A stretch of DNA of 32,000 bases from Ignicoccus pacificus DSM 13166 (GTDB taxonomy: Archaea; Thermoproteota; Thermoprotei_A; Sulfolobales; Ignicoccaceae). The DNA lies in contig CP006868.1 in assembly GCA_025340205.1 (NCBI GenBank), positions 1,380,001-1,412,000 on the forward strand, written 5' to 3'. Under the pieces are notes generated by a model. That model saw only the letters and a program-made list of their open reading frames with translations, did not search any database and was not told where the DNA came from. Below, piece after piece: positions 7,667 to 21,064 of this stretch (its first letter is position 1; each line of letters opens with the position of its first letter). The position numbers and the translations under genes were made by a program.

Positions 7667-8308
7667 CTACAGCTTCCTCAGCACGTACATTCCTCCCGCC
7701 ACTGCCGCCACTAGGACCAGTATCATCACTATCGTTCCTACGTCGGCAAATCCTATGTACTTTGTAACCGTTATCGTTACCGTTACCACTGTAGCGTTCT
7801 TCCAACCCTTCGGCAGTATCGTCACTTGCGTGAAGCCGTAGGAATCACCCATGTTCGATCCGTCCCCGTTAACGGCGTTAACGGCGATCGAGAATATCAC
7901 CGGCTTGGGCTTGGTAGGAGCCTTCCAAGCGAAGCTCCACTTCCTCTTCAAGGCTCCCTGGGAGGTGTGGGTCAGTATCTCGTGTCCAAAGAGGTCGGTG
8001 GTCAGGAAGGTGTCCTTGGGATCGGTCACTATCAGCTTTCCGCCGCTGACGCTTACTGCGAAGCCTCCACAAGCCACTCCTCCCTTACACGGAGGTCCCT
8101 TGGTTATCTCGATGGTAATGTTGTATACCTTGCCAGGCTCGTAGTACTTCGGGAGCCCTATTACCTTAAACTTAGGAGGGTGTTGAGCCGCTCCTATGTG
8201 ACACTGAGCACAATCTAAGGCCGGGGCTCCGTTGCTCATCGCTAAAGCTAGAGATCCCAAAAGGAGAACGAAGATGAGAATTCTTTTCTCCATCATTATT
8301 TCCTGCAC
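7667..8308 (-). CDS. secreted, C-terminally membrane-anchored protein with a single CxxCH haem-c motif and a beta-sandwich (reeler/DOMON-like) body
   Basis: A signal-peptide-like N-terminus (MEKRILIFVLLLGSLALAMS) is followed by 'CAQCH'. 'YYEPGKVYNITIEI', 'GGFAVSV' and 'WSFAWKAPTKPKPVIFSIAVNAVNGDGS' follow. The C-terminal TM helix ends in RKL. The true start is probably the internal ATG (MEKR...). Confidence 0.6.
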   Translation of the reverse strand: MQEIMMEKRILIFVLLLGSLALAMSNGAPALDCAQCHIGAAQHPPKFKVIGLPKYYEPGKVYNITIEITKGPPCKGGVACGGFAVSVSGGKLIVTDPKDTFLTTDLFGHEILTHTSQGALKRKWSFAWKAPTKPKPVIFSIAVNAVNGDGSNMGDSYGFTQVTILPKGWKNATVVTVTITVTKYIGFADVGTIVMILVLVAAVAGGMYVLRKL

Positions 8309-10228: not shown

Positions 10229-11242
10229 TTACCTTTTCCTGCTCAGCCGGTCAGACTTCCTGTAGAGGAAGTACGCTAGGGGCAAGATCATGGGAATAGG
10301 GGTTATAGGAGCTCCAGCCTCGTTGGACGTCATTAGGGTAGTTATTGTTTTGAGCTCGGTCGTATTCAAGTAGTAGAAGTACAGAGTTCCATCACCAAAT
10401 CCGATAGCTAAGCCTAGGTTCCATCCAACGGACTTTATGGTCAGAGGGTAGGTGACTTGGTATAGTAACTTTCCGTCGACGTTGAGCAAGCTGAGCTTTG
10501 TAGATGCACCAACTACCAGGTAAGAACAGTTGCCCAAGAACACCACTTGTCCGTAGCTCCCTAGGTCGTTCCTTATCCAGAGCAAGGTTGGAGAGGAGCT
10601 TAGGTCGTAGAGGTAGAGCCCTCCTACCGCCTTTACCGCCAAGTACTCCCCACAAGCAGCCACGCTCCAAGGCATCTCCGGGAGCTGTATTGGTGTACCT
10701 ATCTTCTTTCCATTCAAGTCTAATATCACTACGCTAGAGCTTATCGAATCTGGTACGAATATTGCCGTTCCGTTGAAGGCCGGATTGCTCAAAACGTTAA
10801 GCCCCGTCACGTTCCACTCCGCTTGTCCTTGGTAGTTGAACATCGCACAGCCGTTGTAGCAAGCCACAAATCCTCCGGGAACTAGTACTATTCCATAGCT
10901 GTAGTCGGTGCCTATGTAAACGCTGCTGTAATTCAGTGTGGTTTCATTGAGCAAGTAGACGTAGCCGTCATAGCTCAGCAAAGCAAAGGTCCCGTTCGCA
11001 TAACTGGTGGAGGAGGCTCCTCCAGGAGGACAAATTGTGTTCAGCAACTTCCCATCCGTCTTATTCAATATATAGAAGCACCCCGAGGAGTAGGAGGAGG
11101 GGGAGGAGGAAGCGACCACCGTGAGGTTTCCAACGCTCACGGAGTTAATGGAATAGGAAGAGGGTGTCAAGTACTGCCACAGCTGCTGCAAAGGGGAAGC
11201 GATCGCTATCGCCACGAGCGCCAGTAATACCAGTATCCTCAA
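10229..11242 (-). CDS. secreted repeat (beta-propeller-like) glycoprotein with C-terminal sorting-signal-like tail
   Basis: Has a signal peptide (MRILVLLALVAIAIASP). Tyr/Gly/Ser-rich beta-strand repeats include 'YDGYVYLL' and 'GGLYLYDL'. Multiple N-x-S/T sequons. The tail is '...LMTSNEAGAPITPIPMILPLAYFLYRKSDRLSRKR'. Confidence 0.6.
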   Translation of the reverse strand: MRILVLLALVAIAIASPLQQLWQYLTPSSYSINSVSVGNLTVVASSSPSSYSSGCFYILNKTDGKLLNTICPPGGASSTSYANGTFALLSYDGYVYLLNETTLNYSSVYIGTDYSYGIVLVPGGFVACYNGCAMFNYQGQAEWNVTGLNVLSNPAFNGTAIFVPDSISSSVVILDLNGKKIGTPIQLPEMPWSVAACGEYLAVKAVGGLYLYDLSSSPTLLWIRNDLGSYGQVVFLGNCSYLVVGASTKLSLLNVDGKLLYQVTYPLTIKSVGWNLGLAIGFGDGTLYFYYLNTTELKTITTLMTSNEAGAPITPIPMILPLAYFLYRKSDRLSRKR

Positions 11243-16875: not shown

Positions 16876-17702
16876 TGTCGATCACACCCTTTAACGTTCC
16901 TATAGTTCCCAAGCTGAAGAGGGAGACCATACTTTCCCTAGCAAAGAGGGGAGTGAGGATAGACAAGAGGAGGCTCGACCAGTTTAGGCCAATAAGCATC
17001 CAGCTGGGAGCTGCTGGGAAGGCACACGGAAGCGCTCTGGTAAGCATAGGAAACACCAAGGTGCTGGCCGGAGTCAAGATAGAGCCGGGAAGGCCCTTCC
17101 CAGACACTCCAGAAGAGGGGGTGCTCAACGTAAACGCCGAGCTCGTTCCCTTAGCCTCCCCTGAGTTCGAGCCCGGCCCACCGGATGAGAACGCCATCGA
17201 ATTGGCCAGGGTGGTGGACAGAGCCCTTAGAGAGAGCCACGCCATAGACATGAGCGAGCTGGTACTGATACCGGGAGAGAAGGTCTGGGTGGTCTGGGTA
17301 GACATTTACGTGCTCGATCACGACGGAAACCTCTTCGACGCCTCGATGCTGGCAGCAATGGCTGCCCTCATGGACGCAAAGATACCCAACCACCAAGTGC
17401 TAGAAGACGGAAGCGTTGAGATCTTGGGACCCGGAGTAGAGCCTCTGCCGATAAGGAAGAAGGTTGTGAGCGTAACCTTAGGAATCCTCGGGGACACCTT
17501 CATAGTGGACCCGAGCTTGGAAGAAGAAGCGGTAGCTGACGGAAAGATCTTCTTTGCCTTCGACGACAGCGGCAACATAGTGGGAATTCAGAAGAGCGGA
17601 CCTGCTTGGCTTGACTTCAAGAAGGTCAGCGTGGCAATGGAAATCGCTAGGAACCGCTACCACAACGTCCTAGCGGCCCTGAACAAGGCCTTCCAATCCT
17701 AA
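16872..17702 (+). CDS. rrp42: exosome complex subunit Rrp42 (RNase PH domain, non-catalytic)
   Basis: '[20 protein letters not shown]...[18 protein letters not shown]', '[20 protein letters not shown]' and the operon position. Confidence 0.9.
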
Positions 17703-18378
17703 GCTTTTTGCAATCCTCCCAAGCGTCGAAGAAACACTCGACCCCAACCAAGAGCTCTTCGATCGCGTCCTCGCATATCTTGCCTTGAACCATGAATACT
17801 CCCAGCCCCAAGATGAAAGTTATGAGAGGACTTACGGTGTAGTGAAGGATGTCTATGCTTACCTCAAATACCTTATACAAGTAAAACATCACAAGTATCC
17901 TTATCCAAGATATGGGTAGACCTAAGATCAAGCCGGCTAAAGAGGCTCCGATCCTTCTCCTCCAACTGCACTTACACACTAGGGGGAAGAGCAAGAACAT
18001 GAGTGACCTCAAAGAAGAACAAGCTAAGGTATAGCTTGCCAAGAGCTCGTTTCCTTGAACTATTAATATCTCCTTCCCCAAGTACATTACCTTAAAGCCT
18101 AATGGAGAAAGCGCTTTCGCGAGAACCTCATAATCGAGGCTCAAGGTCGAGAACGGGGTAAGCTCTAGGAATATCGGTAGGAAGTACCCGAGCAGTATCA
18201 AGAAGTAGACGAGCGTTGGAGTGAAGCACTTGCTGTTCCTATAAGAGTAGACCAAGTAAAGCGCAGGAAGCAAGGTCAAGAGAGCTAGGAGAGGAGGGAC
18301 GCCTACCGGAGCTATAGCTTCGTAAAGGGACCACGAGCCAAAAAGGATTAGCATTAATAGAGCGACGCACTTCTTCAT
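17647..18378 (-). CDS. exosortase/archaeosortase-family membrane protein (class not assignable by eye)
   Basis: 243 aa and polytopic. 'YTLACSSLRSLMFLL' looks like an active-site Cys context. 'ISWIRILVMF' places an Arg 40 residues after that Cys, and 'DILHYTVSPL' supplies a His. Order and spacing fit the Cys/Arg/His pattern of the exosortase family. The gene starts 10 nt downstream of a putative substrate gene. Confidence 0.55.
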   Translation of the reverse strand: MKKCVALLMLILFGSWSLYEAIAPVGVPPLLALLTLLPALYLVYSYRNSKCFTPTLVYFLILLGYFLPIFLELTPFSTLSLDYEVLAKALSPLGFKVMYLGKEILIVQGNELLASYTLACSSLRSLMFLLFPLVCKCSWRRRIGASLAGLILGLPISWIRILVMFYLYKVFEVSIDILHYTVSPLITFILGLGVFMVQGKICEDAIEELLVGVECFFDAWEDCKKLRIGRPCSGPLGRCGSGS

Positions 18379-18388
18379 CTCTCTTCAG

Positions 18389-19306
18389 CTACTGTTGGAT
18401 TGCCTTACTCTTTTTCCTCTTCCTCAGCGCTGCCAGAGCTCCCGGAAGGGCCAGCACCAGAGGAACTGGTATCGTAGTGGAACTGTTGCTAGTCATAGTA
18501 TTCGTCATTATCATTGTAGTTGTCATCAGCATAGTCTTTGGAACCGGTAAGTAGACGTTGTCGTAGTAAGCTCCTCCCCTTCCTCCGAACTCGAAGTACT
18601 CCAAGGCGGTCGTGTTGTCGAAGGGTAGGGAGACGTTGGCGATGACCCCGCTGGTCACGTTTGTCAAATACACGTTAACACTTCCCACCTTGTAGTTCAC
18701 ATCGACCCTAAGCTCCATCCAGTTGAGGGAAGCGTTGCTCGTCAAGTTCCACTGGAATGGAAGTTGCTTGGTCACCGTAGTTCCATTAGACAGATAGGTA
18801 GTTACGGTCACGTTTCCGCTTACCGTTGTGTTGGTAGCATTGGCATAGAACGTAACGTTGATTAGTACCTTACCGTTAGATCCAACTAAGTAGACGCTGG
18901 TCCACTGGGTGGTATTAGGAGGTGCTAAGTCCTTATCAGGAGCTAGGTCTATCACGAACTCGTAGGTACCCATACTCAAGTTCCCTAGATAGTACTTCAG
19001 GGTGTAGTTACCGGCTAACAGAGAGTTAGGCTTGCTTATAGCGGTAGCGTTGCTCACGTTTAGGACTAGCGTTGCATTGGTAACGTTAATCGGAGTCGCT
19101 ATCAGCCCCGTCTCCGCTTGAAGGGTCGTAGGCGATATCGCTCCGACGGTCAAGTTATCGAAGGTTATGTTGACGTAGCTCAGCTTAGTCATGGTATAGG
19201 TTGTAGTGGTCGTTGTGGTCATCGTATAGGTAGTGTTCATCGCTAAGAGAATTGGTAATGCCATCAAGGCTAGTAACGCTATCCTCACCGATGTCACCGG
19301 AGTCAC
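18389..19306 (-). CDS. surface glycoprotein candidate with C-terminal sorting-signal-like tail
   Basis: A signal peptide is present. I counted 21 N-x-S/T sequons in 305 aa. Thr/Met-rich low-complexity stretches lie at both ends (NTTYTMTTTTTTTYTMT and TMLMTTTMIMTNTMTSNSSTT). The tail is 'IPVPLVLALPGALAALRKRKKSKAIQQ', i.e. Pro motif, hydrophobic helix, basic cluster. Confidence 0.65.
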   Translation of the reverse strand: MTPVTSVRIALLALMALPILLAMNTTYTMTTTTTTTYTMTKLSYVNITFDNLTVGAISPTTLQAETGLIATPINVTNATLVLNVSNATAISKPNSLLAGNYTLKYYLGNLSMGTYEFVIDLAPDKDLAPPNTTQWTSVYLVGSNGKVLINVTFYANATNTTVSGNVTVTTYLSNGTTVTKQLPFQWNLTSNASLNWMELRVDVNYKVGSVNVYLTNVTSGVIANVSLPFDNTTALEYFEFGGRGGAYYDNVYLPVPKTMLMTTTMIMTNTMTSNSSTTIPVPLVLALPGALAALRKRKKSKAIQQ

Positions 19307-19367
19307 CGCGCACGATTACTACAAAAGAGAGGAATTAGCGTTCGGAAACGTAGACGCCGCGACCCCT

Positions 19368-19377
19368 CATTATATAC
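19368..19377 (+). promoter_or_regulatory. TATA box (CATTATATAC)
   Basis: Lies about 35 nt upstream of the TTG at 19409. Confidence 0.4.
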
Positions 19378-19408
19378 TCCGAATTTCCTAGCCTTCCATA
19401 GGGAGACC

Positions 19409-19774: not shown

Positions 19775-21064
19775 ATGAACGCGCTCAGATTGATCGCGGC
19801 GATAGTCGCGTTTGTCATAGCTTACTGGAGCCTCCACTCCATAAGGCCGCTGACGCCGGGAGCAGTTACCGCTGGGAACAAGCTGGAGATACCTTACTCT
19901 TGGGACATAAGCTCACACAACACGCCGCTAGCCGTGGTCACCCCTCCCAAGCCGGCCTACCTAAGGGTCAGCTCCTTCAACGTGTATCAAGACGGAAGGT
20001 GGGTAAGGGAAGGAGGGAGCTTCGGTCCCGGCGTCCTGAAAGGTAACACCTACACCATTTCAATAACTCCCTTCGCTGTCCTTCTCTACCCCGCCTTCCC
20101 CGTTCCCCAACCCTATCCCGGAACCCTCCCGAAGGTCATGGGAGGTACTGAGAACGGAGACACCTTCACCTTCAACGGCTTCAAGACCCAAGTGGTAGCG
20201 AAGTATACTGATCCCTTCCCCAAGGAACTCTTCCCTCAGCTTTTCGTTCCCTTGAGCCAAGTAGCTATCTTCAAGCCCAAGCACTGGTCTACGAAAAGGG
20301 TCCAAGAGCTGGCCCAAAAACTCTACAACGACTTCAAGGGGAGAACCCTCTACGCGTTGCTGGATTACATGACCAACTGGCTCAGACACAACTACAAGTA
20401 CACCTTAACTTACACGGGGACTCCCGGGAAGGATCCCGTCGATTGGTTCCTGTTCGTATCCAAGACCGGAATGTGCATGCACTTCGCCTCCGCAGCAGCC
20501 GTCCTCCTCAACGATATGGGAATAAAGGCGAGGGTTGTCTACGGATTTGCGGTAAGCTATCAGAGGGGGGACTTCAGGGTGTTCGTGACCCCCACCCACC
20601 TCTGGGTGGAGGTCTGGGTCCCCAACGTAGGCTGGATACCTTGGGATCCCTCTCCTCCTGCAGCCCTTAGGATCAACGCCCCTCAAGCCGTTGGAGGAGG
20701 GGGCGGAATAGCCCCTCCCGTCACCCCACAGAAGGCGCCGACCGCCCCGGGAAGAGGAGGGGGCGGAGGAAGGATCTCCGTAAACTTGAGGGACTTGGTT
20801 CCCTACCTAACAGCCTTCATTGTAATATTGATACTATTCTTCGATACCATTAAGAAGTGGCTGCTCTCGTGGCCCGTTGCCTTTAGAGAGTGTGCTGAGA
20901 GAAAGATAGGGAAGAAGGGGCTAACGCTCAGGGAGCTCGCCGAGATCACCGGAATAAAGGAGCTCGAGGAAGTTCAAGTTGAATACCTCAAGAGAGGTAA
21001 GTGGCTCAGAAAGGGATTCTGGAAGGCGTTAAAGTGGTGCCTAAGCAAGGCTCTGGGAAGGTAG
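19775..21064 (+). CDS. transglutaminase-like (Cys-His-Asp core) membrane protein with DUF4129-like cytoplasmic tail
   Basis: N-terminal TM segment. Core motifs are 'KTGMCMHFASAAAVLLNDMGIKARVVYGF', 'THLWVEVWVP' and 'GWIPWDPSP'. A Gly/Pro-rich linker and a second TM follow. The tail contains 'KKGLTLRELAEITG'. Confidence 0.85.
   Translation: MNALRLIAAIVAFVIAYWSLHSIRPLTPGAVTAGNKLEIPYSWDISSHNTPLAVVTPPKPAYLRVSSFNVYQDGRWVREGGSFGPGVLKGNTYTISITPFAVLLYPAFPVPQPYPGTLPKVMGGTENGDTFTFNGFKTQVVAKYTDPFPKELFPQLFVPLSQVAIFKPKHWSTKRVQELAQKLYNDFKGRTLYALLDYMTNWLRHNYKYTLTYTGTPGKDPVDWFLFVSKTGMCMHFASAAAVLLNDMGIKARVVYGFAVSYQRGDFRVFVTPTHLWVEVWVPNVGWIPWDPSPPAALRINAPQAVGGGGGIAPPVTPQKAPTAPGRGGGGGRISVNLRDLVPYLTAFIVILILFFDTIKKWLLSWPVAFRECAERKIGKKGLTLRELAEITGIKELEEVQVEYLKRGKWLRKGFWKALKWCLSKALGR

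Follow-up and report, generated by a model that had tools for sequence, protein, structure and literature searches.

A predicted archaeosortase of a small crenarchaeal subfamily and its candidate cargo in Ignicoccus pacificus

Introduction

Does the crenarchaeon Ignicoccus pacificus process some of its surface proteins with an archaeosortase? The question is raised by two adjacent minus-strand genes, IPA_08145 and IPA_08150, in a 32,000-nucleotide stretch from strain DSM 13166 (contig CP006868.1, 1.685 Mb, positions 1,380,001 to 1,412,000 of the forward strand; hereafter the window, from whose first letter all window coordinates are counted). IPA_08145 encodes a polytopic membrane protein of 243 residues, and IPA_08150 encodes a sequon-rich secreted protein of 305 residues whose C-terminus resembles a sorting signal. 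Our analysis indicates that IPA_08145 falls, by its sequence, within the exosortase/archaeosortase superfamily, that its Cys/Arg/His set is intact, and that the protein belongs to a very small, unnamed subfamily which, as sampled, comes only from marine hydrothermal Desulfurococcales/Thermoproteota. IPA_08150 is most likely its client, through an unnamed tripartite tail of the (I/V)PxP type.

According to a 2012 review, crenarchaea appear to be without archaeosortase homologues and substrates (PMC3387779); a 2018 review assigns archaeosortases to part of the Euryarchaeota and none to the Sulfolobales (PMC6098224), and halophiles and methanogens are mentioned in a 2023 preprint by Haft (bioRxiv 10.1101/2023.06.07.544157). 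In our literature search, no paper tying Ignicoccus to a sortase system was found. How proteins reach, or stay in, the Ignicoccus intermembrane compartment and outer membrane is itself a question raised in the 2012 review. The strain can be grown in bioreactors (bioRxiv 10.64898/2026.09.08.750209).

Results

A sortase-like gene lies directly downstream of a putative cargo gene

The two open reading frames are 100% identical to IPA_08145 (UXD22774.1) and IPA_08150 (UXD22775.1; GTG start), respectively. GenBank labels both genes hypothetical, and UniRef carries the automatic name 'Exosortase/archaeosortase family protein' for IPA_08145. Direct reading of the sequence bore out the arrangement described in the sequence-only reading that preceded this work: both genes lie on the same strand, with the cargo upstream and a gap of 10 nt.

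18389 to 19306, minus strand: putative cargo gene IPA_08150 (open reading frame, 21 sequons, no Pfam or NCBIfam family)
18379 to 18388, minus strand: spacer 'ctgaagagag', from the cargo stop codon to the sortase-like ATG, read directly
17647 to 18378, minus strand: sortase-like gene IPA_08145 (open reading frame, TIGR04178 match, family of 12, AlphaFold2 model)

The two genes are probably co-transcribed. At its 3' end, IPA_08145 overlaps the convergent Rrp42 exosome gene by 56 nt. The GenBank start of IPA_08145 corresponds to Met9 (235 residues); we favour Met1, because homologues have basic N-termini ahead of the first helix.

IPA_08145 belongs to the exosortase/archaeosortase superfamily

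IPA_08145 matches NCBIfam model TIGR04178 with 25.6 bits (curated cut-off 23; E value 1.1e-05), over residues 118-201 and profile positions 5-94 of 97. Since the margin is small, the match was checked through negative controls, family evidence and residue-level evidence. No TIGR04178 match was returned for the reversed protein, for three full shuffles, for three block shuffles that retain its hydrophobicity profile, or for two unrelated polytopic membrane proteins of the same window. Scanning all 1.84 billion representative proteins with HMMER gave a family of 12 representatives, ten of which match TIGR04178 independently (best E value 3.4e-10) and three of which match Pfam Exosortase_EpsH (PF09721; best 1.3e-08). 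With a match above cut-off, ten of 12 family members agreeing and the controls negative, the earlier proposal of an exosortase-family protein holds. In IPA_08145 itself, Pfam returns nothing significant, PF09721 included. A Pfam Mem_trans match to IPA_08145 (15.6 against a required 25.7 bits) was dismissed as a hydrophobic-helix artefact.

The family is narrow and stands apart from named subfamilies. A word-indexed homology search with IPA_08145 retrieved the protein itself and one metagenomic protein, and the same kind of search with the 12-member profile added nothing new; neither reached a named archaeosortase. A profile search of genome and metagenome contigs with the Ignicoccus-type sub-alignment gave no match and likewise missed the source genome, and no relative of the enzyme was found among IMG/VR viral contigs. 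Named genome matches, obtained with the profile of the second subgroup, are metagenome-assembled genomes (MAGs) labelled 'Desulfurococcales archaeon' and 'Thermoproteota archaeon', and other family members derive from hydrothermal-vent metagenomes. One MAG (GCA_054016855.1) carries two diverged paralogues, one of each subgroup (L004, 6001-6702; L010, 10001-10753). Against the models of the named Art and Xrt subfamilies, only XrtX appears for IPA_08145, at 12.7 versus 170 bits, and the relative P0010 scores 12-26 bits against XrtH, CrtA, XrtX, XrtY, XrtG, XrtF, heimdallarchaeosortase and ArtE, whose cut-offs are 86-170.

Cys120, Arg160 and His179 occupy the conserved columns of the superfamily

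The putative catalytic residues of IPA_08145 lie in the order and with the spacing first read from the sequence: Cys120 in TLACSSLRS, Arg160 in SWIRIL 40 residues further on, and His179 in DILHY another 19 residues after the Arg.

18019 to 18021, minus strand: codon of Cys120, predicted nucleophile (invariant in 12 of 12; mutant score)
17899 to 17901, minus strand: codon of Arg160 (invariant in 12 of 12; mutant score)
17842 to 17844, minus strand: codon of His179 (invariant in 12 of 12; mutant score)

In the 12-member alignment, in which identity to the query is 22-51%, the sole invariant columns are P68, C120, R160 and H179. Arg160 is embedded in a P-x-(N/S/P)-(W/A)-x-R-(I/V/L) motif in the fifth membrane helix. 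In-silico mutagenesis scored with TIGR04178 stood in for a direct alignment with Haloferax ArtA, and gave the following scores.

Wild type: 25.6 bits
C120A: 20.8 bits (cost 4.8)
R160A: 16.8 bits (cost 8.8)
H179A: 19.5 bits (cost 6.1)
Triple mutant of C120, R160 and H179: no match
S122A (control): 26.4 bits
C135A (control): 25.7 bits
R140A (control): 23.1 bits
Y180A (control): 25.8 bits
W158A (control): 24.7 bits

The five control substitutions shift the score by +0.8 to -2.5 bits. The losses in the mutants thus place C120, R160 and H179 on the most conserved TIGR04178 columns, which is what had been predicted for them, and since the three residues are invariant in the family and account for most of the TIGR04178 score, their arrangement is more than chance. 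In the superfamily at large, the suspected triad of Cys, Arg and His was proposed from near-perfect conservation (bioRxiv 10.1101/2023.06.07.544157), and in Haloferax ArtA the residues found critical by mutagenesis are Cys173, Arg214 and Arg253 (PMC9263693).

The predicted structure would place the three residues toward the outer side of the membrane

An AlphaFold2 model of IPA_08145 built from the 12 sequences reached a predicted local distance difference test score (pLDDT) of 91.3 and a predicted template modelling score of 0.85. The model contains helices 2-22, 29-45 and 52-71, an extramembrane helix 80-93, a three-stranded sheet 96-116 and helices 122-134, 139-171 and 175-201, followed by an amphipathic helix 203-224 and a disordered Cys-rich terminus. 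Basic residues cluster in three places, the N-terminal MKK, loop 46-51 (2 K/R) and loop 135-143 (4 K/R), whereas loops 23-28 and 172-174 contain none. Helix boundaries and the positive-inside rule together argue for a topology with both termini inside, six membrane helices and the 72-121 domain outside. In such a topology, Cys120, Arg160 and His179 would lie near the outer ends of helices 4-6: in the model, Cys120 stands just ahead of helix 4, right after the extracytoplasmic sheet, Arg160 in the outer part of helix 5, and His179 four residues into helix 6 from the outer side. Nothing comparable to IPA_08145 was found in the PDB by sequence, and the best fold match had an E value of 0.32, with TM scores of at most 0.32; the structure is therefore no independent test of family membership. 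The residues 202-243 (17647-17775), predicted to be cytoplasmic, are rich in Cys (C202, C217, C223, C232 and C239) and may bind metal or be regulatory; several relatives share a Cys in a G-x-(E/D)-C context.

IPA_08150 is a sequon-saturated secreted protein with a tripartite tail

IPA_08150 contains 21 N-x-S/T sequons, exactly the number counted in the sequence-only reading; 5000 composition-preserving shuffles of the protein give 6.2 +/- 2.1 and a maximum of 13. The Thr/Met-rich stalks described at both ends are also present, with NTTYTMTTTTTTTYTMT following the signal peptide and TMLMTTTMIMTNTMTSNSSTT preceding the tail. The N-terminus, MTPVTSVR followed by IALLALMALPILLA, is signal-peptide-like.

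19238 to 19306, minus strand: predicted cargo signal peptide MTPVTSVRIALLALMALPILLAM (basic n-region, then a hydrophobic stretch)
18410 to 18478, minus strand: tripartite tail TT-IPVP-LVLALPGALAAL-RKRKK (tail profile match, motif alignment)

The tail has the three parts ascribed to it, namely the Pro-containing signature motif IPVP, a short hydrophobic helix that itself contains Pro, and the basic cluster RKRKK, after which six further residues, SKAIQQ, end the protein. IPVP opens a hydrophobic stretch of 16 residues with an internal Pro. On none of the tails scanned does any NCBIfam CTERM model reach its cut-off (no PGF-CTERM or VPLPA-type match), in agreement with the earlier impression that the tail equals no named CTERM class. 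The sub-threshold matches to LPXTG (13.4 versus 15.9 bits), PEP-CTERM (7.3 versus 16) and JDVT-CTERM (12.5 versus 27) fall on the generic helix-plus-basic part. A word-indexed homology search with IPA_08150 found only the protein itself, and no Pfam or NCBIfam family matches it. A single-sequence AlphaFold2 model, of low confidence at pLDDT 41, is all-beta save for the signal-peptide helix.

Tail-bearing genes recur directly upstream of the enzyme gene

Other organisms supply the decisive evidence for the pairing: as in the window, a gene with such a tail (a carrier) immediately precedes the enzyme gene, in the same orientation, in three of them (L001, L009 and L013).

L001 (vent metagenome; enzyme 40% identical): upstream stop codon overlaps the enzyme GTG; tail ...STTT-VPLP-LLLAPFGIFL-KRRTK
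L009: two upstream same-strand genes, a WD40-type propeller and a 519-residue protein, 73 nt from the enzyme gene; tails R-IPTS-ALLILLAALFVWSI-RRE and K-IPSV-ALLAPLAEAF-RRIRKSK
L013: five consecutive same-strand carriers upstream, the last overlapping the enzyme start
L013, tails 1-3: G-VPAP-LVLPVALSLL-RKK; A-IPLP-LMLALLGGVLT-RLRR; A-IPFA-VLAIPVAEAL-RRR
L013, tails 4-5: V-VPLQ-LLIAVIPLLN-RRR; G-IPLP-FIALPLALALG-RLAWRR

Two more loci, L004 and L008, each have one further tail carrier nearby, and carriers can share a locus (five in L013, two in L009, one clear and one weaker in the window). We aligned 12 tails on I/V-Pro, measuring L008 from its membrane-proximal IP. Pro stands at +3 in six of the 12, L/A at +4 in ten, Leu at +6 in eight and Ala at +7 in eight, and 12-18 residues separate the motif from the first K/R. 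All 12 tails are C-terminal and consist of a hydrophobic helix and then a basic cluster, as in criteria 1, 4 and 5 for sorting signals in section 5 of the Haft preprint, which also names an upstream-adjacent target as a hallmark of dedicated systems (bioRxiv 10.1101/2023.06.07.544157). The adjacency in four loci and the multiple carriers agree with criterion 2 of that list (more than one carrier in a genome or, in dedicated systems, enzyme and target side by side). Among the 11 carriers with a complete N-terminus (the L001 carrier, truncated there, was left out of this count), ten begin with a basic n-region and then a hydrophobic stretch, the signal-peptide layout of criterion 6; the remaining one, L013_1960, is unclear. 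Outside the tail, BLASTP similarity between carriers is confined to the propeller group (criterion 7 of the same list). Taken together, the tail layout, the signal peptides and the otherwise unrelated carriers agree with most of these criteria.

A hidden Markov model (HMM) was seeded with ten tails from other loci, leaving out those of the window. Its best domain match among the 280 stop-to-stop open reading frames of the window is the tail of IPA_08150 (domain E value 0.0025, 12.1 bits). The sortase/substrate pairing suggested for this crenarchaeon is thus supported by the family match and by recurrent tails and gene order; cleavage itself would follow by analogy.

The surroundings of the family genes differ between loci. 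L004 and L005 share the gene order SpoU-methylase, 118-residue protein, sortase. One subgroup has a constant downstream neighbourhood, namely a convergent GT2 + GtrA-type glycosyltransferase fusion (dolichol-phosphate-sugar-synthase-like) and, beyond it, a squalene-hopene-cyclase-like repeat protein ending ...DGGWPVFYD..VPFE.VTAV.VWAL.

GT2 + GtrA and squalene-hopene-cyclase-like neighbours: L007, 6650-8671; L010, 10707-12764; L011, 10700-12753; L014, 4007-4714; L015, 9944-10906

The conserved trio of sortase, GT2 + GtrA and cyclase-like genes hints at a link to glycan or lipid metabolism. Near the multi-cargo clusters, a DUF5906 (primase/helicase-like) gene is found (L009, 7359-9089 and 757-2216; L013, 8792-10528), and L009 also has HicA and DUF4258/DUF2283 toxin-antitoxin genes. 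Given these genes, the cargo clusters of L009 and L013 may lie on integrated mobile elements; a viral origin was also considered and set aside, given the negative result in IMG/VR viral contigs.

A second candidate client and other genes of the window

A propeller-like protein some 7 kb from the pair is probably a second client of IPA_08145.

10229 to 11242, minus strand: IPA_08095 (UXD22769.1), weaker candidate cargo (propeller homology, tail layout)

IPA_08095 is a putative secreted glycoprotein, beta-propeller-like, of 337 residues with a signal peptide and nine sequons. It ends in ...TLMTSNEAGAPITP-IPMILPLAYFLY-RKSDRLSRKR, and its lead-in TLMTSNE resembles the TMTSNSS of IPA_08150. By BLASTP it is homologous to the tail-bearing propellers of the sortase clusters in L009 (E value 1e-32) and L013 (1e-19). 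It is the weaker candidate because the tail HMM misses it. Pfam does not recognise IPA_08095, and recognises its L009 homologue as a WD40/beta-propeller protein. An unusual expansion of WD40-repeat proteins, of unknown role, was reported for Ignicoccus hospitalis (PMC2614490), and IPA_08095 may belong to it.

Two other genes of the window encode proteins with a C-terminal helix.

7667 to 8308, minus strand: secreted 213-residue protein with a CAQCH haem-binding-type motif and a weak Reeler-domain match
19775 to 21064, plus strand: membrane protein with a transglutaminase-like core (Pfam E value 2e-21)

The former ends in a C-terminal helix of the ordinary kind, VGTIVMILVLVAAVAGGMYVL-RKL, lacks the I/V-Pro motif and thus offers an internal contrast to the sorting tails. 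The latter has a Gly/Pro-rich low-complexity segment, GGGGGIAPPVTPQKAPTAPGRGGGGG, ahead of its C-terminal helix, and lies just past the divergent 107-residue sCache-like gene that adjoins IPA_08150.

Discussion

Our favoured reading, to which we assign a probability of roughly 0.7, is that IPA_08145 is an intact archaeosortase of a small subfamily and that IPA_08150, as one of a few cargos, is processed at its tail. In the pathway we envisage, IPA_08150 would be exported via Sec, lose its signal peptide and receive many N-linked glycans at the outer surface of the cytoplasmic membrane. Its C-terminal helix would hold it there transiently, with RKRKK in the cytoplasm and IPVP at the outer membrane boundary, level with Cys120, Arg160 and His179 at the outer ends of three consecutive helices. 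By analogy with Haloferax ArtA, Cys120 would attack the chain at or next to the motif, the helix and basic cluster would be removed, and the new C-terminus would then either be joined covalently to a membrane lipid as its anchor or be set free. We infer the endopeptidase or transpeptidase action on the tail from that analogy, as we do the anchoring chemistry and the final membrane of IPA_08150. The system may well serve a few cargo proteins and not strictly one, since IPA_08095 is a probable second client and a related organism carries five tail-bearing genes in a row.

Among known systems, ArtA with PGF-CTERM, from Haloferax volcanii and other Euryarchaeota, is one of the closest. ArtA, too, is a polytopic member of the TIGR04178 superfamily, its Cys-to-Arg spacing is 41 (C173/R214) compared with 40 in IPA_08145, its cargo, as predicted for IPA_08150, is a surface protein that is exported through Sec, densely glycosylated and equipped with a Thr/Ser-rich linker, and in both tails, which are tripartite, the motif abuts the helix without a spacer. 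However, the ArtA model TIGR04125 does not match IPA_08145 and reaches an E value of 0.16 in one of 12 relatives; the signature motif is (I/V)PxP here and PGF for the ArtA cargo; family members of 213-250 residues are smaller than ArtA; and the host, a crenarchaeon, has two membranes and lacks an S-layer. The third residue also differs: Arg253 is experimentally critical in ArtA, whereas the invariant residue here is His179, as in the triad of Haft.

Bacterial systems share single features. The VPLPA-CTERM motif of XrtD is approached by VPLPL in L001 and IPLPL/IPLPF in L013, and the small XrtX and XrtH models give the next-best sub-threshold matches to family members. Yet P0010 scores 25.9 versus 86 bits against XrtH and 18.3 versus 170 against XrtX, XrtD is matched at an E value of 0.032 in one of 12 members, and Xrt systems are bacterial while the IPA_08145 family is archaeal. 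In the dedicated systems VPEID-CTERM/XrtE and JDVT-CTERM/MrtJ, the cargo gene likewise lies immediately upstream of the enzyme gene; in contrast to these, the pairing here is not strictly one-to-one: L009 has two carriers, L013 five and the window a probable second one, and beside many family members there is none. ArtE, archaeosortase H and heimdallarchaeosortase (TIGR04124, NF041736 and NF045528) are archaeal, belong to the same superfamily and are weakly matched by a few relatives, but none matches IPA_08145 at an E value of 10 or below, and P0010 scores 12.5 versus 95 bits for ArtE and 15.6 versus 130 for heimdallarchaeosortase.

Several observations weigh against our favoured reading. IPA_08145 clears the TIGR04178 cut-off by 2.6 bits only, and its closest homologue, P0002, does not match that model on its own. 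The tail motif carries little information in a small sample, and only I/V-Pro is constant, which follows from how the alignment was anchored; the tail HMM misses IPA_08095 among the window open reading frames. In nine of the 15 family loci, no tail-bearing gene occurs in the sequence available (loci named without a carrier are L002/L003, L005/L006, L007, L010-L012, L014 and L015). An Ignicoccus-like organism that shares the Rrp41/Rrp42 synteny of the window is the source of L002 and L003. L002, the closest such relative, is 93% identical to the window in Rrp42, 91% in Rrp41, 83% in the 107-residue neighbour and 54% in the sortase-like protein; it has the sortase-like gene but no counterpart of the 305-residue gene, and the enzyme gene lies only about 250 nt from the conserved neighbour (window 17647-19408 against L002 385-1359). 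By this comparison, the pair forms a fast-evolving island within conserved synteny, and its cargo is species-specific.

Some of these points also suit another explanation, which we regard as unlikely: the tail of IPA_08150 may be an ordinary permanent C-terminal anchor that lies beside the enzyme gene incidentally, the enzyme having other clients or none in this genome. A Thr-rich stalk followed by a C-terminal helix is, after all, the usual layout of permanently anchored surface proteins in crenarchaea, the motif amounts to I/V-Pro with a semi-conserved second Pro, and L002, like several other loci, has the enzyme gene without a carrier close by. An incidental neighbour is nevertheless difficult to reconcile with an arrangement found in four loci that are independent and highly diverged, where a same-strand carrier borders or overlaps the enzyme gene, and the five consecutive carriers of L013 are hard to put down to chance. 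The hydrophobic segment, at 12-18 residues and often with two or three prolines, would also be unusual for a stable anchor, and the unrelated anchored protein of the window (7667-8308) is without the motif. Quite improbable, in our view, is a main role of the exosortase fold and its triad in a glycan or lipid pathway, such as the processing or coupling of some component in the synthesis of envelope polysaccharide or glycolipid, with tail-bearing neighbours being specific to one subgroup. The neighbours of P0007, P0010 and P0011 (probably also those in L014 and L015), a GT2 + GtrA fusion and a cyclase-like protein, would suit such a role, as would the glycosyltransferase genes near P0008 and P0013, and bacterial exosortases are reportedly typical of exopolysaccharide loci. 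But the Ignicoccus-type clade shows cargo adjacency directly, the putative catalytic residues match those of peptidases or transpeptidases, and in characterised or well-argued members the link to a glycan locus comes in addition to protein sorting, not in its place (bioRxiv 10.1101/2023.06.07.544157). IPA_08145 might, finally, be a decaying or functionally relaxed archaeosortase remnant with no current catalytic role, which we consider highly improbable. The 54% identity to the L002 ortholog, set against 83-93% for flanking genes, the extreme sparsity of the family and the hypothetical label in GenBank could be read in this way; against it, the reading frame is intact, P68, C120, R160 and H179 are unchanged across 22-51% identity, fast evolution is typical of envelope-exposed systems, and a very confident AlphaFold2 model from just 12 sequences points to a coherent, co-varying fold.

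The superfamily, the logic of the tripartite signal, the enzyme-beside-target arrangement and the automatic UniProt label of the enzyme were known before. What is new here, as far as sequence comparison can carry it, is a crenarchaeal subfamily with its own unnamed tail type, which would extend this surface-anchoring system: together with its 11 relatives, the locus reveals a small branch of the family in crenarchaea, in which the catalytic residues are intact and a distinct putative cargo signal is used. The interest of the finding comes mainly from the unusual envelope of the host and from the stated absence of such systems in crenarchaea. In practice, the tail motif could become a model for annotating surface proteins in MAGs of Desulfurococcales, and the link of IPA_08095 to the propellers is of biological interest given the WD40 expansion of I. 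hospitalis. A bolder form of our favoured reading, tentative and on balance doubtful, is that Thermoproteota possess a specific '(I/V)PxP-CTERM' system through which Sec-exported Ignicoccus glycoproteins, WD40/beta-propeller clients included, become lipid-anchored at their C-terminus for the intermembrane compartment or outer membrane. If this is true, the fast-evolving, species-specific IPA_08150 would contribute to strain-specific surface properties of Ignicoccus, and the system would provide a first handle on how proteins are sorted to an archaeal outer membrane.

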